Both the position numbers and the translations under genes were made by a program. A DNA stretch of 64,000 nt, from contig CAXXYH010000004.1 of the NCBI GenBank assembly GCA_963677925.2, positions 640,001-704,000 on the forward strand, in the 5' to 3' direction. Every line of letters starts with the position of its first letter. The stretch's first letter is position 1. This document shows positions 8,124 through 31,941 of this stretch, piece by piece. The notes under the pieces were generated by a model. The model saw only the letters and a list, made by a program, of their open reading frames with translations. It made no database searches and was not told where the DNA came from. Source of the stretch: Spirochaetia bacterium (GTDB taxonomy: Bacteria > Spirochaetota > Spirochaetia > UBA9216).

Positions 8124-9755
8124 ATGGACGGGGAAAATTATGTAATAGTCAGCAGGGCTCCGGCTATGGATTACAAAACCGATTATGTAGTCCTGCCGAA
8201 AAATTACGGAAGCCGGCAGTATTATCAGAGGAAGGATGTAAGTGCAATAATTGAAACTGTTGAATCAAACCTGAATTCGCTCAATGAGAAAACCGATTTT
8301 GTAAAAAAAATTCAGGGTCGAAGGGTCATTATCAAACCCAATTTTGTCGGTGTCTTTCACAAGGTCGGACTGAAGGTTGACGATGTTCCGCAGTCAACAG
8401 ATCCGCGGGTTATAGATGCGGTTGTAAAATACCTTAAAAAATATACTGACGATATTATTATAATAGAAGGTTCCGGAGCTCCCGTTTCGCGTCTGATGGC
8501 TAAAATAAACGGTACGGACAGAATTGTTAAACGCTATGGTATAGAGTTTCAGGCTGTTGAAGAGCTTCCTGTTGATAAGTACCTCCTTCCGAAGGCTCAG
8601 GTAATGAAGGAAGTTTTCATTCCAAGAACCTTCAGTGAGATTGTCAGAGGGGAGGCTTTCTACATCTCTCTGCCCAAGATGAAAACAAATGCCTATACCG
8701 GCGTGACTCTCGGGTTTAAAAACGCCATGGGCTGTCTTTCTCCGCATATGCGATACAGAAACCATAATTACAATATTGATAAAAAGCTTGTTGATCTCCT
8801 CTGGCTTTTTAAACCGGACCTGACAATCATTGACGGTATTATCGGTGCCGAGGGGAATGTTCCCGGACCGGTAGATCCTGTGGATGCCCGTCTGATAATA
8901 AGCGGCACAAACAGCGTTGAAACCGACAGGGTTGCTACAAGAATAATGGGACATGACCCGTCAAAGATCAGACTGATGCAGGAGGCTGACAAACTCGGGT
9001 TTAATGATCCTGACACTGTTGTTATCGGTGAGCCGGAACCCATTCCCTGGAGGCATGCTGATACAAGTCTTGTTTCAGGCAGGATTGCGGAGAAATTTCC
9101 TAATGTCAGGTTTCTTGTAGGTGCGGTAAAGAATACCGCACCCGAAATTGACAGTACCGATGTTGATATTGAAACTGTGAAGGCTATGGAACAGGCCTGC
9201 CCCGGAGGATGTCTACCTTCGGTGATTTATAATATGGAGAACTTTCTCTATTACCGCAATCTCAATCCGGAAGATGTAAGGATGACTGTTGTAATCGGAG
9301 CCGGTGCCCTTGTCGACGGCCGCAGGTTCTATTTTGATAAAGACTGCCGGGCGTACTCCGATGAGGATATAAAAGCCCTGGATGAGCCAGTAGTAGCTGT
9401 GGGTTCATGTACATGCCGCCTGAATGGAGCTGCAGATTACCAGGTTGAAGGATGCACCGCAAAGGTCTCAAGAGTTACTGAGGTATTCAATAAAGCAGCA
9501 GGCCTGCCGAATCCGATAACAAGAAGTCTGCTGTCAAATCCGCTAAATATCCCGGTGATTCTTAAGTCTCAGCGAAACCGGAAGAAACTGGCCCTGGCCG
9601 GGCATCCCATGGATGTTGAACTGTGTATTGAGGACAAGATTTTTGAAGGACGGGCTCTTACTGACGATGAAAAAAAGATGGATTATATCCGCTGTGAAAT
9701 AGAGCCGCTTACAAAAGAACAGATTAAAAAGCAGTTAAGCTATATAAAAATATAG
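8124..9755 (+). CDS. DUF362 domain Fe-S protein with Cys-rich C-terminal extension
   Basis: VIIKPN, TDPRVIDAV, ISLPKMKT, VTLGFKNAMG, IIDGIIGAEGNVP, ETD. C-terminal ACPGGC, GSCT and GCT. ATG 8124 follows AAGGTG. Confidence 0.8.
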   Translation: MDGENYVIVSRAPAMDYKTDYVVLPKNYGSRQYYQRKDVSAIIETVESNLNSLNEKTDFVKKIQGRRVIIKPNFVGVFHKVGLKVDDVPQSTDPRVIDAVVKYLKKYTDDIIIIEGSGAPVSRLMAKINGTDRIVKRYGIEFQAVEELPVDKYLLPKAQVMKEVFIPRTFSEIVRGEAFYISLPKMKTNAYTGVTLGFKNAMGCLSPHMRYRNHNYNIDKKLVDLLWLFKPDLTIIDGIIGAEGNVPGPVDPVDARLIISGTNSVETDRVATRIMGHDPSKIRLMQEADKLGFNDPDTVVIGEPEPIPWRHADTSLVSGRIAEKFPNVRFLVGAVKNTAPEIDSTDVDIETVKAMEQACPGGCLPSVIYNMENFLYYRNLNPEDVRMTVVIGAGALVDGRRFYFDKDCRAYSDEDIKALDEPVVAVGSCTCRLNGAADYQVEGCTAKVSRVTEVFNKAAGLPNPITRSLLSNPLNIPVILKSQRNRKKLALAGHPMDVELCIEDKIFEGRALTDDEKKMDYIRCEIEPLTKEQIKKQLSYIKI

Positions 9756-9768
9756 AAGAGGGTGTAAT

Positions 9769-10041
9769 ATGAAGAATCAGGCAGTAAGATATATATTTGT
9801 AATCCTTATCTGGGCGGCAGCTCTGCTTTTATGGATTATCAAAGGATGGTGGTTTATAGCCGCAGCCTTGTTTCTGCTTCATTTTTTTGAAACAATGTTT
9901 ACAGGAATCAGGACCGGAAAAGAACATGGTCTGAGCCGGGGGTATTCGATTATTATGTCAATGGCCTTCGGTATTGTCTGGTGGAAACCTCTAAATGATG
10001 AGTATAAAGAGAAAAACATTCCGGAGGACTGCGAAGAGTGA
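9769..10041 (+). CDS. Small membrane protein (about 3 TM), unknown function
   Basis: Hydrophobic 90 aa with LHFFE and FGIVWWKP. SD GAGGG. Overlaps the aor start (GTGA). Confidence 0.7.
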   Translation: MKNQAVRYIFVILIWAAALLLWIIKGWWFIAAALFLLHFFETMFTGIRTGKEHGLSRGYSIIMSMAFGIVWWKPLNDEYKEKNIPEDCEE

Positions 10042-12038
10042 AAGGTTATATAGGAAAAATTCTGGTTGCTGATCTAGGATCAGGAAGATGTGAAATTGAG
10101 GCTGTTCCCGAGAAGGTATATGAAGAGGTTCTCTCGGGAGTAGGCCTTGGTGCCTGGTACCTCTGCAGGAATATTCCGGCCGGTGCAGATCCGCTTGGTC
10201 CGGAAAATATTCTAGGATTTACATCCGGTCTTCTTACGGGAACAGGCTCTGTCATGACCGGCCGGTGGATGGCCGTCTGCAAATCACCGCTTACCGGCGG
10301 CTGGGGAGATTCAAATTGCGGCGGAAATCTCGCTCCTGCAATCAAGCAGTGCGGCGTTGATGCAATATTTATCAAAGGTCAGTCGGCAGAACCCGTATAC
10401 CTCTATATGGACAACCGGGGCGCGGAGATCCGCCCGGCTGCAGATTACTGGGGGCTTGATGCAATCGAAGCCGAAGAGCGGCTGATAAAGGAAAACTGGA
10501 AAAAGAAGAAGCCGGCTGCTGCAGTAATCGGACCCTCTGCTGAAAAGCTGTCGCTGATATCCGGCATATCCAATGACCTGGGTCGGTATGCCGCACGTTC
10601 AGGCGTCGGTGCTGTAATGGGCTCAAAGAAGCTCAAGGCTGTGGTTCTTGCCGGGACAAAGCAGGTTAAGGCAGATAATCCGGAAAAGATTAAGGAACTG
10701 AGTAAGGAGTATTCCCGGAAGGTAAGAAAGATGAACGCGCCCGGCGTATTCACCGGGGCCCTGCTTCCTGTGCTTGGAAAGGTAATGGGAAGTCTGAAAA
10801 GTGTTGCTCCTCTGGATGGAATGCTAACCGCAATGCTTCTCAGAAAATGGGGTACGGTGATGAATAATACACTGGCCGTCATGAACGGTGATGCCCCGAT
10901 AAAGAACTGGTCCGGTTCAGAAAAAGATTATAATTTTAAATACTACAGACAGATCAATCCCGATAAGTTCATTGCCCGTGAGCAGACCAAATATCACTGC
11001 TATTCCTGCATAATCGGCTGCGGGGGAATGTGTTCAATAAAAGATATCAGGGATGGAAAATATTCCCACACACATAAACCCGAGTATGAAACGGCAATGA
11101 TGTTCGGCGGTCTTCTGATGAATAAGGACCGTGATGCAATCTTTTATGCAAACGAACTCTGCAACCGCTATGGTCTTGATACTATATCAGCCGGAAGTGT
11201 AATAGCATTTGCAATTGAATGTTACGAGAACGGGATTCTCACAGATGAGGATACATACGGTCTGAAACTTAACTGGGGCAGCAGCGATGCCGTCATAAAT
11301 CTTCTTGAGAAAATTGCAAACCGCGAGCCGGGTCTTGGTGATATCCTTGCTGACGGAGTGAAAGCCGCGGCTGAAAAGATAGGTAAGGGCTCTGAAAAAT
11401 ATGCTGTCCATGCCGGCGGCCAGGAGATTCCGGCGCATGACCCGAAAATTGATCCGATGCTGGCCCAGACCTATGGAATTGATCCGACTCCGGGCCGTCA
11501 TACTACAAGCAGCGGCTTGTACTATACTTCCTCATTTCTGTGGCAGCACGTTTCATGGCTTCCCTCATTCAGGCTGTATTCGAAGAGCAGGGAATACATA
11601 CCTTCTATGGAAGAAACAATGAAAAATGTGGCTTATACAGCGTTTAAGATGCTGATCGACGGAACCGGCAGCTGCTATTACGCTATGCTGATGGGTGTCA
11701 GGTATTTCAGAATTTTTGATTTCCTGAATGCTGCAACCGGATGGAACAAGACTCCTGATGAATATATGGAAATAGGAAAGCGGATGCAGAACCTGCGTCA
11801 GCTGTTCAATGCAATACATTCCGTAGATGTAAACAGCTTTAAGCCCCATGCAAGAGTTTACGGGGCGGAGCCTCTTGTAAGCGGACATAATAAAAATATT
11901 ACGGTTGATATTGACGGGATGATTGAACTGTATAAGGAAGCCTGGGGCTGGGATGCTGAAAGCGGATACCCCACTGAAGAAACCGTTAACAAATACGGAC
12001 TTGAACAGCTGCTTGATAAGGAGAACCTGTATGCCTGA
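10038..12038 (+). CDS. aor: Aldehyde:ferredoxin oxidoreductase family (tungstopterin) enzyme
   Basis: GKILVADL, KSPLTGGWGDSNCGG, AARSGVGAVMGSKKLKAV, CYSCIIGC, EYET, GLDTIS and GWDAESGYPT. Confidence 0.92.
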   Translation: MKGYIGKILVADLGSGRCEIEAVPEKVYEEVLSGVGLGAWYLCRNIPAGADPLGPENILGFTSGLLTGTGSVMTGRWMAVCKSPLTGGWGDSNCGGNLAPAIKQCGVDAIFIKGQSAEPVYLYMDNRGAEIRPAADYWGLDAIEAEERLIKENWKKKKPAAAVIGPSAEKLSLISGISNDLGRYAARSGVGAVMGSKKLKAVVLAGTKQVKADNPEKIKELSKEYSRKVRKMNAPGVFTGALLPVLGKVMGSLKSVAPLDGMLTAMLLRKWGTVMNNTLAVMNGDAPIKNWSGSEKDYNFKYYRQINPDKFIAREQTKYHCYSCIIGCGGMCSIKDIRDGKYSHTHKPEYETAMMFGGLLMNKDRDAIFYANELCNRYGLDTISAGSVIAFAIECYENGILTDEDTYGLKLNWGSSDAVINLLEKIANREPGLGDILADGVKAAAEKIGKGSEKYAVHAGGQEIPAHDPKIDPMLAQTYGIDPTPGRHTTSSGLYYTSSFLWQHVSWLPSFRLYSKSREYIPSMEETMKNVAYTAFKMLIDGTGSCYYAMLMGVRYFRIFDFLNAATGWNKTPDEYMEIGKRMQNLRQLFNAIHSVDVNSFKPHARVYGAEPLVSGHNKNITVDIDGMIELYKEAWGWDAESGYPTEETVNKYGLEQLLDKENLYA

Positions 12039-26377: not shown

Positions 26378-26406
26378 TTGACAATAGTATCAACGGAAAA
26401 TATTAT
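26378..26406 (+). promoter_or_regulatory. Sigma70 promoter TTGACA-17-TATTAT
   Basis: -35 at 26378-26383 and -10 at 26401-26406. The predicted TSS near 26413 coincides with the riboswitch 5' end. Confidence 0.8.
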
Positions 26407-26413
26407 GATTCAT

Positions 26414-26511
26414 AACTCCGAACCTTTATCTCCTAAAATCCGGAAGGATCATGGGTTGAGGTCGATGGGTTCAGCGGGAAACTGTTGTGCCTTCCGTGTT
26501 TGAAAAGGAGA
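26414..26511 (+). ncRNA. Moco/Tuco riboswitch (Moco RNA motif), apparently the P3-less variant
   Basis: P1 CTCC(26416-19)/GGAG(26507-10). CCTAA...ATGG tetraloop-receptor-like element capped by ATCC-GGAA-GGAT. P4 CAGCGG-GAAA-CTGTTG. 3' GCCTTCCGTGTTTGAAAAGGAG matches the recalled Moco RNA consensus. The downstream gene is WtpA-like. Confidence 0.85.
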
Positions 26512-26677
26512 AAATAAAAAACTGATCATGGCTTTAATGACCTGAAAAAAGTTTCTTATTAAATTACCCGAATCAGGATTAAGAAAGTACTCAGATCCTT
26601 CGGGCAATTCACACCTCTTATACAGATTCAGGAAGACAGGACCGTACTCCCCTTAATTTTACTAGACGGAGGCTTTA

Positions 26678-28000
26678 ATGTCTGAATACCTCGAATATCT
26701 GCCTGAATTGAAAAGCACCACACTCTTTCAGGGAATAGACGACTCTGAATTAATATCTCTTCTTGATGCCATGAGCCCTGAAATTGTCTGCAGGAAGGCC
26801 GGCACGGCGGGTGTGCCGCAGATAGACTTTGATGAAGGGCTATTCTGTGTTGTGCTCAGGGGGAAGCCATTGGACCAGCTTGAACCCCGGCCTGATGTTT
26901 ACAACATGCCTAAAATAACAGAACCGGGAATGATGATGGGAGAAATTCCCTGTCTGTCTGAGATGCTGAAAAGCCGGGCTCCAAAAATCAGATTCAGAGG
27001 CGGCGGGCATTCGGGACCCAGACATGACGACTTCGATCTTTATATGCTCCGAATGAGCGGAGAAATGGTTACCCGCTTTTACGGCATAGAGCATAGTCGT
27101 GCACAGGGACAGATGCTGCGGAATTTTCTCGGTATCCTGGCTCAGAAGGTGACTGATGTTCGAAAAGAGAAAGTCCAGCTGAGCTCTGATTATGATAAGG
27201 AGCTGTCTCCATACCGCCTGAATATTCTCTGTGCCGGTGTCTCACTCAAGCTGGTTAAGCAAACAGCTGAGATGTGGAATAAGATGCATCCTGAGCTTCC
27301 GGCAGTTGTTACCCCTGGCGGTTCTGTAGATATTATACGTGACTGTATAAGCGGTTATCCCTGCGACCTTCTTATTTCAGCAGATGATTCCATTATTGAG
27401 TCGATGCTGATGCCTGATTATGTTTCCGGTTACCGAATCTGGGGCGGGAATAAAATGGTTATCTGCGGAGAAGGTATATCTCTTGACAACTGGATTAACA
27501 GACTTTCAGCTTCCGACGCTTCATTTAAGCACAAGGATCCATACGGAGATCCCGGCGGGTACAGGGCTGTTATGGCAATGCTGCTTGCCGATAAGGTTGA
27601 ACCGGGCCTCTCGGACAGGTTAATGAATCATCCAGGTCATATCGGCATGGAGAAAAATCCCGGTCCTTTTGGAAATATGAAGCCTGCGGATTATTCGTTT
27701 ACCTATCTTAGTGCAGCTGTTTCGATGGGTGTTGATTATACAGAACTGCCCGCAGTTATGGATCTTTCTGATCCTGATCTGGCTTCGGAGTATGCAGATG
27801 TTAGTTTTGCTGTTGATAAAGATAACACTATTACAGCAACACCCATTGCCCATGCACTGGCCATTCCTAAAAGTTCACTGCATCTTTCTGCCGCCGCGGA
27901 ATTTGCTGAACTCTTTCTTAATATCGATAAATCTGAACACGGTTTTCTGCCCAGGGAGGGAATAGCCGGAACCGATCCTCTGACATTAAAAAACAGATAA
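26678..28000 (+). CDS. Fusion of a degenerate CRP/cNMP-binding-like N-terminal domain and a WtpA/ModA-like tungstate/molybdate-binding domain; no signal peptide
   Basis: N-term LFQGIDDSELISLL, PGMMMGE and MLRNFLGILAQKV (CRP-like, no HTH). C-term CAG, GGSVDIIR, DLLISADD, DPYGDPGGYRAVM and DYSFTYLS. SD GGAGG. Confidence 0.7.
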   Translation: MSEYLEYLPELKSTTLFQGIDDSELISLLDAMSPEIVCRKAGTAGVPQIDFDEGLFCVVLRGKPLDQLEPRPDVYNMPKITEPGMMMGEIPCLSEMLKSRAPKIRFRGGGHSGPRHDDFDLYMLRMSGEMVTRFYGIEHSRAQGQMLRNFLGILAQKVTDVRKEKVQLSSDYDKELSPYRLNILCAGVSLKLVKQTAEMWNKMHPELPAVVTPGGSVDIIRDCISGYPCDLLISADDSIIESMLMPDYVSGYRIWGGNKMVICGEGISLDNWINRLSASDASFKHKDPYGDPGGYRAVMAMLLADKVEPGLSDRLMNHPGHIGMEKNPGPFGNMKPADYSFTYLSAAVSMGVDYTELPAVMDLSDPDLASEYADVSFAVDKDNTITATPIAHALAIPKSSLHLSAAAEFAELFLNIDKSEHGFLPREGIAGTDPLTLKNR

Positions 28001-28038
28001 TGTACTCATAAAAGTACTGATTATAAAAGGAGAAACTA

Positions 28039-29130
28039 ATGAATAACTTGAAAAAAATTGTTTTAACGATTCTTGTCGGTATATGCATTACAGCATATCT
28101 TCCGGCGGACAGCAGAGTTGTAACCGTTACCGACATGAGCGGGGATTCGGTTACTGTGAAAGGTGAGGTTCGTAAGATAATTAATCTATGGCCTGCCGGA
28201 ACCTCTTCATTCTTCGTTATGGGTGCCGGTGATCTGATTGTCGGGCTGGCTGTAAACAGCCCGGCTACAATGAACTCCTGGACAAGGCTTTTTTACCCTG
28301 AATGTCAGAGTATTCCGGCTCTCGGTGGAATAACGCCTTCTATAGAGGAGCTGATAAAACTTGATCCGGACCTTGTCATCATTCATCCTTCCAGTGCAAA
28401 GGCGGGGTTTGCTCAGCAGATTCGTGATGTCGGTATTCCCGCAATTAATATTAATTTCAGCGATTATAAAACAATGGTTAAGGCATATACAGTACTTGGG
28501 GAAGTGCTTGGAGGCAAATACCAGCAGCGGTTGAGCAAATGGTGTTCTGAAGTGGAATCAAAGCTTTCAAATGTACGGTCCCTTACCTCAGGCCTCACAG
28601 ACTCAGAACGTCCTGTAGTTTACTATGTTGCCGGCCAGACAGATTCACTGACAAAAACAATGCGTTCAGGCAGTATTATCAATGACTGGGTTGAGTCTGC
28701 TGGAGGTGTATATGCTTCCGACAGGATGGACGTTCCCGGTTCTGATGTTACTCCTGAGGCTGTATTCGCGCTTGATCCTGATGTTATCATCTGCGGCGGT
28801 GTATATCAGCACATAGAAAAAGAACAGATTTCTGTTTCTGAAGGCTGGAATGATCTTCGGGCTGCTGTTGATGAGCGCGTATATACGAACCCTTACGGCT
28901 GTTTCAACTGGGATCGCTTCGGTCTGGAGAGTCAGCTTCAGATTAACTATGCACTCTTAAGGATCCAGCCGAAAATAGCTGCTGCTAACGGTATATCTGA
29001 AGAGTCAGTAATTGAAGAAATTATTGATTTTTACAGTACATATACAGGATTTAATCTGAGCCGTGCACAGGCTGAGAATATGTTTAATGGTTTGACCGCT
29101 GACGGGTCACCGGAAATGTCTGCAAGGTAA
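28039..29130 (+). CDS. Class III (FepB/BtuF/MolA-type) ABC substrate-binding protein
   Basis: Signal peptide, VTVTDMSGDSVTV, PSIEELIKLDPDLVI, EAVFALDPDVII and WNDLRAAVDERVY. Confidence 0.9.
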   Translation: MNNLKKIVLTILVGICITAYLPADSRVVTVTDMSGDSVTVKGEVRKIINLWPAGTSSFFVMGAGDLIVGLAVNSPATMNSWTRLFYPECQSIPALGGITPSIEELIKLDPDLVIIHPSSAKAGFAQQIRDVGIPAININFSDYKTMVKAYTVLGEVLGGKYQQRLSKWCSEVESKLSNVRSLTSGLTDSERPVVYYVAGQTDSLTKTMRSGSIINDWVESAGGVYASDRMDVPGSDVTPEAVFALDPDVIICGGVYQHIEKEQISVSEGWNDLRAAVDERVYTNPYGCFNWDRFGLESQLQINYALLRIQPKIAAANGISEESVIEEIIDFYSTYTGFNLSRAQAENMFNGLTADGSPEMSAR

Positions 29131-29137
29131 GGCTGCG

Positions 29138-30202
29138 TTGACAGATTTAAATATTAAGAATGAAACTGATCACTCTGCTCCGGGCAGAGTGATCAGTTTT
29201 CCTTTTCCATGGATTTTTTTACTTTCCCTTCTTGTCCTTTTCATGATGTTTACATTTTCCCTGGCTGTCGGCCGCTACAGTATTCCGGTTGATTATACCT
29301 TGCGTATTCTTTTTTCAAAAATAATGGATGTAAACAGGATATGGACAGATATTCAGGAGGCGGTTGTACTTAATCTTAGACTTCCCAGAACTGTTGCCGC
29401 CGTAGTAATCGGTGCGGCATTATCACTCTCCGGTGCAGCCTACCAGAGTATTTTTAAAAACCCTATGGTCTCACCCGATCTCCTGGGGGTTTCTTCCGGT
29501 GCCTGTGTAGGAGCCGCACTTGCCATTCTGTTAAATGCCGGGAATGCAGTTATTCAGCTCAGTGCCTTTACCGGGGGTTTAATTGCTGTAGGAATTACAG
29601 TTTCTATTCCAGCACTTATCCGGAGTAATTCAACCACGATTCTGGTTCTTTCCGGTATTGTTATCAGCAGCCTGATGTCTTCAATCATGAGCATAATAAA
29701 ATTTGTAGCTGATACAGATACCCAGCTTGCAGAGATAACCTACTGGCTGATGGGCTCCTTTGCGTCTATAAAATTTAAACAGATGCTGCCAGTTCTTCCT
29801 ACAATTATTATACCTGCAGCGGTTGTTCTGCTGATGCGGTACAGGCTGAATGTTCTTTCTCTAGGTGATAAGGAAGCGAAATCTCTTGGTGTAAATCTTG
29901 GTCTTACAAGGGGAATATTCATCCTGTGCTCAACTCTTTTAACGGCCGGCTGCGTATGCTTGTCGGGTACTATAGGCTGGGTCGGTCTTGTGATTCCGCA
30001 CACAGCAAGAATGATCATCGGATCCGATAACAAGAAAATGCTGCCTGTAGCAATGACCTGCGGAGCTGTTTTTATGCTGGCAATTGATATTCTCTGCAGA
30101 ACTATTACTACGGCGGAATTAAGGCTTGGAATTTTAACAGGAATAATCGGCGCTCCGTTTTTTATTTTTATATTGTTTAAACAGAAGGACCGGGTAAAAT
30201 GA
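29138..30202 (+). CDS. FecCD/BtuC-type ABC permease
   Basis: LRLPRTVAA, GAAYQSIFKNPMVSPDLLGVSSGA, EAKSLGVN, GWVGLVIPH and GAPFF. Confidence 0.93.
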   Translation: MTDLNIKNETDHSAPGRVISFPFPWIFLLSLLVLFMMFTFSLAVGRYSIPVDYTLRILFSKIMDVNRIWTDIQEAVVLNLRLPRTVAAVVIGAALSLSGAAYQSIFKNPMVSPDLLGVSSGACVGAALAILLNAGNAVIQLSAFTGGLIAVGITVSIPALIRSNSTTILVLSGIVISSLMSSIMSIIKFVADTDTQLAEITYWLMGSFASIKFKQMLPVLPTIIIPAAVVLLMRYRLNVLSLGDKEAKSLGVNLGLTRGIFILCSTLLTAGCVCLSGTIGWVGLVIPHTARMIIGSDNKKMLPVAMTCGAVFMLAIDILCRTITTAELRLGILTGIIGAPFFIFILFKQKDRVK

Positions 30203-30969
30203 TTCTTGAAGTAGATAATCTAAGTTACTGCTATCATAACAGCAGTAACATTTTTAATGGTGTAAGCTTCTCGCTTGATAAGGGAGAGGTTCTTTCGATC
30301 CTCGGAGTAAACGGCGCAGGTAAATCCACTCTGCTTAATTGTATAGCAAACCTTTTTAAACCAGAGGCGGGTGAGATCAGATTAAACGGAAAAATTATGT
30401 CTTCGATGCATACAAGAGATATAGCCCGTGTTATTGGTTATGTCCCGCAGAGCCATACTCCGGTATATGGATACAGCGTTAGAGAGTACGTTGTTATGGG
30501 AAGGACTCCGTTTATAGGAGCTTTTGCTGTTCCGGGAAGAGATGATTACAGGATTGCGGATGAAGCGCTTGAAAAGATGGAAATAAAACATCTGGGGAAA
30601 AAACTGTATACAGAAATATCCGGAGGTGAAAGGCAGCAGGTTATGATTGCAAGAATTTTCGCTCAGCAGCCTCAGCTTATACTTCTTGATGAACCTACAG
30701 CCCATCTGGATTACGGAAACCAGCACCGCGTTGTCGAAATGATCCGTAGTCTTGCCGGAGAAGGCTACGCAATGATAATGACCACCCACAATCCTGAGCA
30801 TGCATTTATCCTGGATGGGAAGGTCGCTATTCTGAACAGATCCGGTGTTCTTTGCGTTGGTGATTCCGGAGAAACTCTTACCGCCGAAACTCTTTCAAAT
30901 CTTTATTCGCTTCCGATAAAAACCAAGTATGATGAAGATGCAAAAAGAAATATCTGTGTTGTATGCTAA
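30199..30969 (+). CDS. ABC ATPase (FecE/BtuD type)
   Basis: GVNGAGKST, YVPQ, ISGGERQ, LLDEPTAHLD and TTH. Confidence 0.95.
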   Translation: MILEVDNLSYCYHNSSNIFNGVSFSLDKGEVLSILGVNGAGKSTLLNCIANLFKPEAGEIRLNGKIMSSMHTRDIARVIGYVPQSHTPVYGYSVREYVVMGRTPFIGAFAVPGRDDYRIADEALEKMEIKHLGKKLYTEISGGERQQVMIARIFAQQPQLILLDEPTAHLDYGNQHRVVEMIRSLAGEGYAMIMTTHNPEHAFILDGKVAILNRSGVLCVGDSGETLTAETLSNLYSLPIKTKYDEDAKRNICVVC

Positions 30970-31035
30970 AACGCGATGCCCTTATATTATCATATTCCCC
31001 TTGAAGCATCAGATTGTAATTGTTAATCTTATCCA

Positions 31036-31941
31036 ATGCCTTTTAAAGAAATCGCTATTTTTAATATTCCTATCGTATACATTTATCCGCTGCTGATTCT
31101 GATAATATTCAGCACCGTTCTTTTTGTCGTTTTAAAGAATCTAAAAAAAGCGACAATCCGAAGGGAAGAACGCTTCATAAAGAAAGAACATGATAAAGCA
31201 CTGTCAAAGCCGACTAAAACCATGCGCAGAAGCAACGCAAGGAAGCGGAAGTCCGGTCTTGAAAGTATTGAAAAACAATTTACAATAACAAGAAAAATAC
31301 TTATACCCTCTATTCTGCTCCTTGCTCTTATCATTGCCGTAATACCATTTCTGAATCAGGTTCCTGCCGCTATTCTTTCTCTGTTCATCGCGGGATTTTC
31401 ACTGATTCTGGGTATTGCAGTTAAACCGCTGCTGGAAAATGTTTTTGCCGGACTTGTTATCTCCTATTCTAAATCTCTTAATATCGGAGATACTGTAGTT
31501 GTTGATGATAAGTACGGTACTGTTGAAGATATAACCATGTCCTATACAACTATAAAAACCTGGGACTGGAAGCGCTATATACTTCCTAATTCAAAGATGA
31601 TTCAGCAGGAATTTCTAAACCTGACTCTTGTCGAAAAATATCAGTGGGCATATGTAGAGTTTTATGTTGCATATGATACTGATATTGAGAAAGTTAAGGA
31701 GATTGCTCTGAAATGTGCTTCAGAGAATAAACATACTGTTGTTGATAATGTACCCTATTTCTGGGTTATGGATATGAAGGAAGAAAGCTATGTCTGCTGG
31801 ATCGCCTCCTGGACTGAAGATCCCGCGACTGCATGGTCATTTAAAAACGACATCAGAACTGATATGATCATTGAATTTCAGAAAGCCGGTATTAAATCCT
31901 ACTCAATAAAATATTTTATGAATGAAAATCCCCCAGTATAG
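31036..31941 (+). CDS. MscS-family mechanosensitive channel
   Basis: LENVFAGLVI, IGDTVVV...GTVEDI, LPNS and VAYDTD. Confidence 0.88.
   Translation: MPFKEIAIFNIPIVYIYPLLILIIFSTVLFVVLKNLKKATIRREERFIKKEHDKALSKPTKTMRRSNARKRKSGLESIEKQFTITRKILIPSILLLALIIAVIPFLNQVPAAILSLFIAGFSLILGIAVKPLLENVFAGLVISYSKSLNIGDTVVVDDKYGTVEDITMSYTTIKTWDWKRYILPNSKMIQQEFLNLTLVEKYQWAYVEFYVAYDTDIEKVKEIALKCASENKHTVVDNVPYFWVMDMKEESYVCWIASWTEDPATAWSFKNDIRTDMIIEFQKAGIKSYSIKYFMNENPPV

Follow-up and report, generated by a model that had tools for sequence, protein, structure and literature searches.

What does a transporter import when its genes look like those of an iron importer and its leader carries a riboswitch for the molybdenum or tungsten cofactor (Moco and Tuco, respectively)? 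The question is raised by a four-gene operon at positions 26378–30969 of a 64-kb stretch (64,000 nucleotides, hereafter 'the window') from a Spirochaetia bacterium, the source genome (5.04 Mb, 99.6% complete, four contigs) having a Spirochaetia metagenome-assembled genome (MAG) as its nearest public relative. The operon combines a Moco/Tuco-type RNA, a gene for a two-domain WtpA-like protein and the three genes of an iron/B12-type ATP-binding cassette (ABC) importer. These four genes are one unit conserved across phyla, and the reading we favour, with a probability of roughly 55%, is that it encodes a system for acquiring tungsten or molybdenum (W/Mo), one that includes a cytoplasmic acceptor and that the cofactor turns off. 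The system is only partly new; its new feature is the conserved and, as predicted, cytoplasmic WtpA-fold partner. The elements of the locus are:

26378–26406, plus strand: sigma-70-type promoter, TTGACA-17-TATTAT (11/12 matches), the −10 element ending about 10 nt ahead of the aptamer P1 stem.
26404–26526, plus strand: Moco/Tuco riboswitch aptamer of the P3-less subtype (RF01055, 123 nt).
26527–26677, plus strand: leader from the aptamer to the first start codon, the expression platform (151 nt).
26678–28000, plus strand: gene 1 (440 aa, SBP_bac_11), encoding an N-domain, a helix and a WtpA/ModA-fold domain.
28039–29130, plus strand: gene 2, a class III (Peripla_BP_2) secreted binding protein with an N-terminal signal or lipoprotein-like peptide (PF01497, 49.9 bits).
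29138–30202, plus strand: FecCD/BtuC-type permease of a type II ABC importer (PF01032, 288.7 bits); the TTG start is uncertain.
29162–29200, plus strand: perfect hairpin of 17–18 bp with a T-rich run behind it, located just downstream of the binding-protein gene and in the first codons of the predicted permease open reading frame (ORF).
30199–30969, plus strand: ABC ATPase of 256 aa without a C-terminal regulatory domain (PF00005, 121.2 bits).

The preliminary description of this DNA had reported a consensus promoter followed by a Moco RNA at the predicted transcription start site, and both are present. The 3′ end of the promoter (26378–26406) meets the start of the aptamer at 26404, and TTGACA stands in register in 4/4 aligned spirochaete leaders; the promoter scan as a whole was not significant, yielding 8 promoter-like sites in the window against 11.0 expected from shuffles. 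The covariance-model check establishes a genuine Moco/Tuco-type riboswitch, with 70.9 bits against a gathering score of 36 (E 4.2e-15) over model positions 1–135 of 135; the P3 hairpin columns are deleted in the alignment, and in the aptamer P4 ends in a GAAA tetraloop, P2 containing a receptor-like CCUAA element. RF01055 is the sole Rfam family in the 64-kb window, where the Rfam scan found no second regulatory RNA, and the window RNA is one of five RF01055 matches in the source genome. Moco RNAs that lack P3 are the candidate 'Tuco' class of Regulski et al. 2008, and the regulating ligand is the cofactor itself according to the accessible text of that paper (PMC2408646).

Comparative genomics carries the main finding. 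A scan of one genome per species gave 79 loci, 30 of them with a full-length gene 1-type fusion, and in 26 of these 30 the fusion gene adjoins genes for the binding protein, the FecCD permease and the ATPase (the exceptions being L020, L028, L031 and L033). Two gene orders occur, with the fusion first in 17 loci and last in 9, and the hosts include Spirochaetia, several families of Clostridia, Dehalococcoidales, Atribacterota, Peptococcaceae, Christensenella and others. In a metagenome scan with exact peptides of a single protein, one locus was recovered (L089), and it holds the full cluster. Since the fusion gene is rare in Spirochaetia (4 of the 201 genomes searched, all from one family) and its product is about as similar to proteins of Clostridia and Dehalococcoidales MAGs (~68–71%) as to that of the sister genus (68–69%), the whole operon looks, from these sequence comparisons, as if it had been laterally transferred.

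A survey of co-occurrence with Moco RNAs had been suggested, and among the 26 operons a Moco-type RNA lies directly upstream in 16. Half of these RNAs reach the Rfam gathering score, five (L010, L014, L015, L019 and L042) at 69.8–80.3 bits and three (L016, L021 and L027) at 36.0–36.4 bits. The other eight are matched only by R2, a purpose-built model of a divergent variant, six of them being training rows of that model and two lying outside its training set (L013 with 112.4 bits and L024 with 105.8 bits). The divergent variant, which Rfam scores at 36 bits or under threshold, stands at the front of the orthologous operons in MAGs of Clostridia, Atribacterota and Syntrophomonadaceae (L011:537-650, L012:4103-4217, L013:4009-4122, L016:198-311, L017:843-958, L021:6807-6922, L022:6804-6915, L024:265-377, L025:6791-6902, L026:14-124 and L027:6797-6907). 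Its P2 is short and lacks the receptor, a P3 hairpin is present, and the GAAA of P4 gives way to a conserved TTAGCC loop. In 9 of the 11 sequences, and with the structure taken from the same alignment, 10 of 34 pairs are changed on both sides, a count that 0 of 500 shuffles matched. Neither Rfam nor model R2 found a Moco RNA upstream of the operons in L018, L023 and L041, and none was found upstream in L089; in L030 and L032 the available sequence begins inside the operon, so that an upstream RNA is not assessable. As a separate observation, the place upstream of the L089 fusion where a riboswitch would be expected holds a group II intron domain (L089:758-830, RF00029, 43.3 bits against a gathering score of 40).

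Which subtype of RNA heads the operon varies. A P3-less RNA stands ahead of it in the window, L010, L015, L019 and L042, and P3-bearing RNAs head orthologous operons in other phyla, namely in L014 (2866-3014) and in the form of the divergent variant. The rule of Regulski et al. 2008 that P3-less means Tuco and P3 means Moco thus fails to follow the regulated gene here, and the riboswitch subtype alone does not tell the metal.

The preliminary description took the first gene for a WtpA-like fusion. The WtpA/ModA-fold domain is indeed there; a role as the binding protein of the transporter does not hold. The product consists of an N-domain (residues 1 to ~135), a 43-residue helix (137–179) and a two-lobe WtpA/ModA-fold domain (180–440). 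Because no signal peptide is predicted and the AlphaFold model (built on 121 sequences, mean predicted local distance difference test score, pLDDT, 93.7) has a folded N-terminal domain (pLDDT at the N-terminus 83–98), the protein is predicted to be cytoplasmic. By sequence the C-domain is best matched by tungstate-bound archaeal WtpA/ModA structures (3cfz, 4.7e-22) and by fold by 2onr (E 2.9e-21), the top 10 Foldseek matches all being WtpA/ModA. It has in common with WtpA and archaeal ModA (3cfz, 3cij and 2onr) the motifs GGS and DPxGYR as well as the YxFxY tyrosine; the residues concerned, S216, D291 and Y343, are invariant or almost so. In placing a metal ligand on the Asp of DPxGYR we also rely on the AfModA residue numbering, which we take to be correct. 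D291, P292, G294 and Y295 are invariant in the 121 sequences. The Asp of this motif is a metal ligand according to the part of PMC11350598 on which we draw. In contrast to WtpA and ModA, the gene 1 product is predicted to stay in the cytoplasm, is fused to the N-domain and has no type I permease partner of the WtpB/C kind.

The N-domain matches no Pfam family even at E up to 10, PF00027 included; a protein language model places residues 1–175 nearest to cyclic-nucleotide-binding domains (0.90, 150 shared features), which we take as a lead only. A complex prediction for the gene 1 protein with the ATPase scored 0.00 and gives no answer, speaking neither for nor against binding. As for known intracellular proteins, identity with Tub, the tungsten storage protein of Eubacterium limosum, was considered and rejected, Tub being a TOBE protein in the accessible text of PMC11980592. 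The fusions of PBP_like (PF12727) with MoeA and the TOBE/Mop/Tub proteins are comparable in that they place an intracellular oxyanion binder (in the case of gene 1, a predicted one) between the transporter and cofactor synthesis, and differ in that the fold and subfamily of gene 1 are those of a WtpA-type periplasmic binding protein. We know of no cytoplasmic Mo/W binder linked to a type II importer.

The three remaining genes are those described before, with gaps between the four genes of 38, 7 and −4 nt, and Pfam agrees that the operon has no BPD_transp_1 permease of the ModB/WtpB/TupB type. A FecCD permease (conserved homology starts at about residue 43), a Peripla_BP_2 protein and an ATPase in a single operon make this a type II ABC importer. 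The expected iron-type auto-annotation is borne out, orthologues being named 'iron complex transport system'; those of the binding protein (55–97% identity) carry publicly only 'iron complex' or generic names. The model of the binding protein (pLDDT 94.4) falls into the MolA/YiuA/CeuE structural clade, of which MolA binds Mo/W and CeuE Ni-His. Its best fold neighbours (the structural genomics entries 4ovk, 4pag and 4hn9, then YiuA, MolA, TM0189 and CeuE) outrank heme, siderophore and B12 binders in the Foldseek search, with MolA (3psa) at E 1.9e-18 and template modelling (TM) scores of 0.72/0.80. In a search with a 135-sequence profile of the family, MolA ranks fourth with 188 bits over its full length (1.8e-54, profile positions 37–339 on residues 2–323 of 3psa), as compared to ~69 bits for BtuF; as a single sequence, MolA matches the binding protein at 1.7e-5 only. 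The orthologues keep a polar or conserved set of their own (N49, T55, S57, H116, D216, Q257, H258, F294 and S298), and R293 is part of a WDR motif kept in the wider alignment.

The WtpA-like domain also occurs outside the fusion, in company of several kinds. One is molybdate and tungstate genes. In L043 a Moco RNA is followed by genes for a ModA-like protein (62.2 bits against a cut-off of 62.5), ModB, ModC, DUF364 and the stand-alone domain, and in L044 the gene of the stand-alone domain is divergent from an operon of Moco RNA, modA (87.3 bits against the same cut-off), modB, modC/DUF364 and moaA; a second Moco RNA in L044 heads an operon of Peripla_BP_2, FecCD, ATPase and DUF364 genes. Operons of the FecCD type with a Moco RNA at their head occur in L047 and L039, where the stand-alone domain lies next to or within the operon, and in L050 the domain adjoins TupA-like and TupB genes. 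Once, in L057, a stand-alone N-domain gene lies directly ahead of moeA. In L039, a Eubacteriaceae locus, the FecCD permease and the ATPase are only 40–44% identical to those of the window, and the binding protein is divergent. Another kind is the TonB-type clusters with FecCD, ATPase and Peripla_BP_2 genes (L059:605-8218, L062:4466-12616 and L064:16-6289): within them the N-domain and the WtpA-like domain are separate genes, as seen in termite-gut Deltaproteobacteria/Adiutrix MAGs. L059 and L062 encode a TonB-dependent receptor and ExbB and L064 encodes TonB, and RF01055 has no match in the three genomes.

The WtpA-like domain is moreover fused to S-adenosylmethionine (SAM)-dependent methyltransferases (L046:2142-3791, L052:1217-2893, L053:6947-8614 and L054:6992-8635), and at L039:7750-8667, L050 and L051 class I enzymes of this type are either fused to the domain or encoded next to it; a CoaC-like flavoprotein gene (PF02441) is close by in L052 and L053. 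We also observed that 'putative heavy-metal chelation' proteins of the DUF364/DUF4213 type accompany Moco-RNA operons of both the Mod and the FecCD type (L043:6175-6927, L044:3527-4990 and 8432-9247), one of them being fused to ModC. Separately, in the enterobacterium Mangrovibacter yixingensis (L033:2083-8323), pstSCAB-phoU is directly followed by a lone fusion gene (a 465-aa ORF), which has no FecCD genes in its vicinity.

We tie the WtpA-fold domain to Mo/W because of its homology and its independent ModABC, TupAB and Moco RNA contexts, to which the N-domain adds the one moeA context. Given that the domain is tied to Mo/W and the FecCD importer is tied to the domain across phyla and in two gene orders, the importer most likely serves W/Mo. 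A switch turned off by the cofactor fits the acquisition of the metal and is a poor fit for the supply of iron to cofactor-bearing enzymes. From the RNA, the gene families, the folds, the linkage across phyla and the riboswitch association we infer the cargo, the OFF direction, oxyanion binding by the cytoplasmic domain and the hand-off, and the system might work as follows. When Tuco or Moco is scarce, the leader would let RNA polymerase or the ribosome pass. The secreted class III binding protein would capture a W/Mo species outside the cell, which the FecCD/ATPase type II importer would bring in. Inside, an abundant cytoplasmic protein, the N-domain with the WtpA-like domain, would bind tungstate or molybdate and either buffer the metal or hand it to cofactor synthesis (MoeA). 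As the cofactor builds up it would bind the aptamer, and expression would fall. Regarding the form in which the metal travels, a complexed (chelator-carried) W/Mo species would be slightly ahead of the free oxyanion, because the diderm versions carry a TonB-dependent receptor and because TupABC-like systems coexist with the operon.

This last point can be extended, as a tentative proposal that we would not bet on, to a 'tungstophore' or 'molybdophore' pathway by which anaerobes import W/Mo on a small organic carrier and of which the operon would be the core. The carrier would pass, in diderms, through the TonB-dependent receptor to the MolA/YiuA-clade binding protein and the FecCD-type pump; the cytoplasmic WtpA-fold protein would strip the oxyanion from the carrier and feed MoeA; and processing of the carrier would fall to the methyltransferases and CoaC-like flavoproteins that Clostridia encode beside the domain. 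On this view, the Tuco-controlled 'iron' transporters of gut bacteria would in reality import tungsten.

Candidates for such transporters have been described in E. limosum, where, in the accessible sections of the study (PMC11725836), five P3-less RF01055 riboswitches are reported, two of them ahead of 'Fe ABC-type' transporters, FetABC1 and FetABC2, which the authors take as iron uptake systems. The window operon resembles these in having a P3-less RF01055 RNA directly before an Fe/B12-type ABC importer operon in a tungsten-using anaerobe, and differs from them in its WtpA-like gene, of which there is none in rows RS06870-06910 and RS20375-20400 of Dataset S6 (PMC11725836). According to the text of that study, FetABC1 and FocA are up under W limitation, the supplementary values for the FetABC1 genes being 1.32-, 2.15- and 1.80-fold (PMC11725836); such a rise is the behaviour expected of a W importer under an OFF switch. 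In the same dataset a methyltransferase and a flavoprotein precede FetABC1 (Dataset S6, PMC11725836), the same pair of gene types as is found beside the WtpA-like domain, and FetABC2 is followed, within the same predicted TUCO regulon, by a Moco-insertion factor of the XdhC/CoxI family (Dataset S6, PMC11725836).

A number of observations weigh against W/Mo acquisition. The evidence on the cargo is indirect: the W/Mo import that the preliminary description had inferred keeps a strong link to these metals through the conserved linkage and the Mod/Tup contexts, and W/Mo as the cargo itself is putative. Gene 1 scores 109.5 bits against the WtpA model TIGR03730, under the NCBIfam cut-off of 242.75; V188 replaces the first oxyanion-binding Ser of WtpA; and the protein is ~25–35 residues shorter than 3cfz and 3cij between the aligned blocks, so that the second carboxylate is not placed. 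E325, a candidate equivalent of this second carboxylate, which is a Glu in WtpA and gives octahedral coordination, is Glu or Asp in most of 29 rows (counted by eye). The family has instead a Cys/His set of its own (C229, H285, H318, H321 and H392, invariant or nearly so), which could, judging by sequence, be the sign of a different ligand. The ligand residues of MolA, which are Y114, K221, R264 and Y301 in the available part of the report (bioRxiv 10.64898/2026.10.15.759412), map by hand onto an insertion/H116, S212, V255/Y256 and R293 of the binding protein; the latter thus appears to share the clade of MolA and not its site. On the RNA side, no Moco RNA is detectable for 10 of the 26 operons, and five operon genomes (L034-36, L038 and L040) have no RF01055 match anywhere. 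No terminator was found in the leader (26527–26677), and the fold of 26490–26700 is no better than shuffles (z −0.56), so that neither a terminator nor a sequestor, and hence no platform, is defined in the window; past the aptamer, conservation in the spirochaete leader alignment stops at the nearest relative, and in L019 a hairpin followed by a T run is seen by eye at the equivalent place. In E. limosum, only the second FetABC1 gene reaches p < 0.05, and elsewhere the accessible text has W limitation without significant change in the two Fe transporters (PMC11725836).

The hosts supply points in both directions. Physiology was checked in five good genomes with the operon, all of which are heavy tungsten users with 2–16 AFOR_N matches each, and this speaks for W/Mo. 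All five also have a TupA-like protein, so that an extra W/Mo importer is not obviously needed, and ModA exceeds its cut-off in three of the five; the source genome, too, has ModA. That the operon might be the sole W importer was rejected on these counts.

The reading of the importer as one for an iron chelate, co-regulated with the tungsten cofactor and supplying iron-sulfur-rich tungstoenzymes, has the published interpretation of FetABC1/2 behind it, together with the 12-fold higher cell iron content of E. limosum on lactate given in the accessible text (PMC11725836), and it agrees with the public names of the orthologues. The structural clade holds YiuA, with iron and part of a catecholate bound, and TM0189, whose annotation is that of a putative ABC transporter protein for Fe(III), and the deltaproteobacterial versions come with a TonB-dependent receptor and ExbB/TonB, like siderophore systems. 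We nevertheless consider it unlikely. An OFF switch operated by the finished cofactor would cut the iron supply just as the tungstoenzymes fill, the Moco RNA is the only regulatory RNA that the Rfam scan shows in the window, and the gaps of 38 and 7 nt leave little space for an iron-responsive promoter, no Fur-box search having been made. Nor does iron explain why a cytoplasmic WtpA-fold protein is encoded beside the transporter in so many of the loci, or why the stand-alone domain turns up in ModABC- and TupAB-type operons.

Large, cofactor-like cargo is the usual load of type II importers and of TonB-dependent receptors. One may accordingly picture the operon as a salvage importer for a pterin cofactor or precursor (Moco/Tuco, molybdopterin or cyclic pyranopterin monophosphate), parallel to BtuFCD for B12 under a cobalamin riboswitch, in which the cytoplasmic protein would take charge of the incoming molecule; the TonB-dependent receptors of L059 and L062, the identity of the regulating ligand with the cofactor itself and the XdhC/CoxI-family factor after FetABC2 would all suit this. 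Moco is, on the other hand, very oxygen-labile, the closest relatives of known structure to the binding protein carry small metal species, and by its fold and motifs the cytoplasmic partner is of the oxyanion-binding type, not the pterin-binding type. MoaC is present in all five good genomes, and the full moeA/moaA/moaC/mog operon in the source genome means that salvage is not required there. Obligate salvage was therefore rejected, and the metallopterin salvage raised in the preliminary description finds no specific support in genomes that have both MoaC and the TupA-like protein; we regard it as decidedly improbable. Of some other small anion or metal, with a WtpA-like domain that has drifted to a new ligand and a riboswitch link that is mere cross-talk, we are the most sceptical. 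The family-specific Cys/His set and the score under the WtpA cut-off would fit such a drift, as would the four methyltransferase fusions in L046, L052, L053 and L054 and the Mangrovibacter gene after pstSCAB-phoU; against this, the links to Moco RNAs, ModABC, TupAB and moeA recur in independent contexts and phyla.

W/Mo acquisition with a cytoplasmic acceptor thus remains our preferred reading. It does not make the system wholly undescribed, as had been suggested: besides the Tuco-controlled 'Fe ABC' operons of E. limosum, in the part of PMC11725836 cited above, MolBC-A of Haemophilus influenzae (HI1470/71/72) is a known type II molybdate/tungstate importer. The latter and the window operon have in common a class III binding protein of the same clade, a FecCD/BtuC-type permease and an ATPase; they differ in the ligand residues of MolA, which by hand-mapping are not kept. 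The window operon, for its part, has a cytoplasmic WtpA-like partner and Moco-riboswitch control. Within the literature covered, from which subscription journals fall outside, we found no paper pairing 'Moco riboswitch' with 'FecCD', and no assignment of W/Mo transport to a riboswitch-controlled FecCD-type system. According to a paper of 2025, the uptake of tungstate or molybdate by ABC systems is confined to three of them, Mod, Wtp and Tup (PMC11980592). If the operon carries W/Mo, many 'iron complex transport' genes in tungsten-using anaerobes, gut Clostridia among them, are mislabelled; the iron reading of the Tuco-regulated transporters of E. limosum needs re-testing; and a cytoplasmic WtpA-fold protein provides a new step inside the cell on the way from import to the assembly of the cofactor.

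The relative dosage of the components may be set within the operon. A strong hairpin (−19.7 to −32.7 kcal/mol) precedes the conserved part of the permease in 7/7 loci (the window, L010, L011, L014, L015, L019 and L022), and as the hairpin sequences are unrelated and occupy the same place, we regard the intercistronic hairpin as a structurally conserved element. The one at 29162–29200 probably governs how strongly the upstream genes are expressed relative to those of the membrane components, and the position of the hairpin after the binding-protein gene in all seven loci suggests a higher output from the first two genes, as would befit a binding protein and a cytoplasmic buffer that is abundant.

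Elsewhere in the source genome, the RF01055 RNAs are distributed by subtype: the P3-bearing copy heads a tungstate-type operon of TupA-like, moeA, moaA, moaC and mog genes, and the P3-less copies head the window operon, an aldehyde ferredoxin oxidoreductase (AOR) gene, an aldehyde dehydrogenase gene and a second ABC operon. The AOR said to lie upstream of the operon is present in the window as an ORF at 10038–12038 (AFOR_N match at 10053–10658), and the genome also encodes a MoeA-PBP_like fusion. The P3-less RNA at L007:1161-1286 (G000:C4:793660-793785) lies directly before the ORF of an NAD-type aldehyde dehydrogenase (1184-2725; PF00171, 569.7 bits), with the start codon a few bases past the aptamer GGAG; the enzyme may be a back-up for the tungsten AORs under cofactor scarcity.

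Two further observations concern neighbouring genes. On the minus strand of L006:4022-9017, a P3-less Moco RNA (G000:C4:1096894-1097016) heads genes for an SBP_bac_8 protein, a 464-aa Oxidored_molyb protein and a 669-aa permease with two BPD_transp_1 domains. In the window itself, with no terminator seen in between, the ATPase gene is followed 66 nt further on by a gene for an MscS-family mechanosensitive channel on the same strand (30970–31941).

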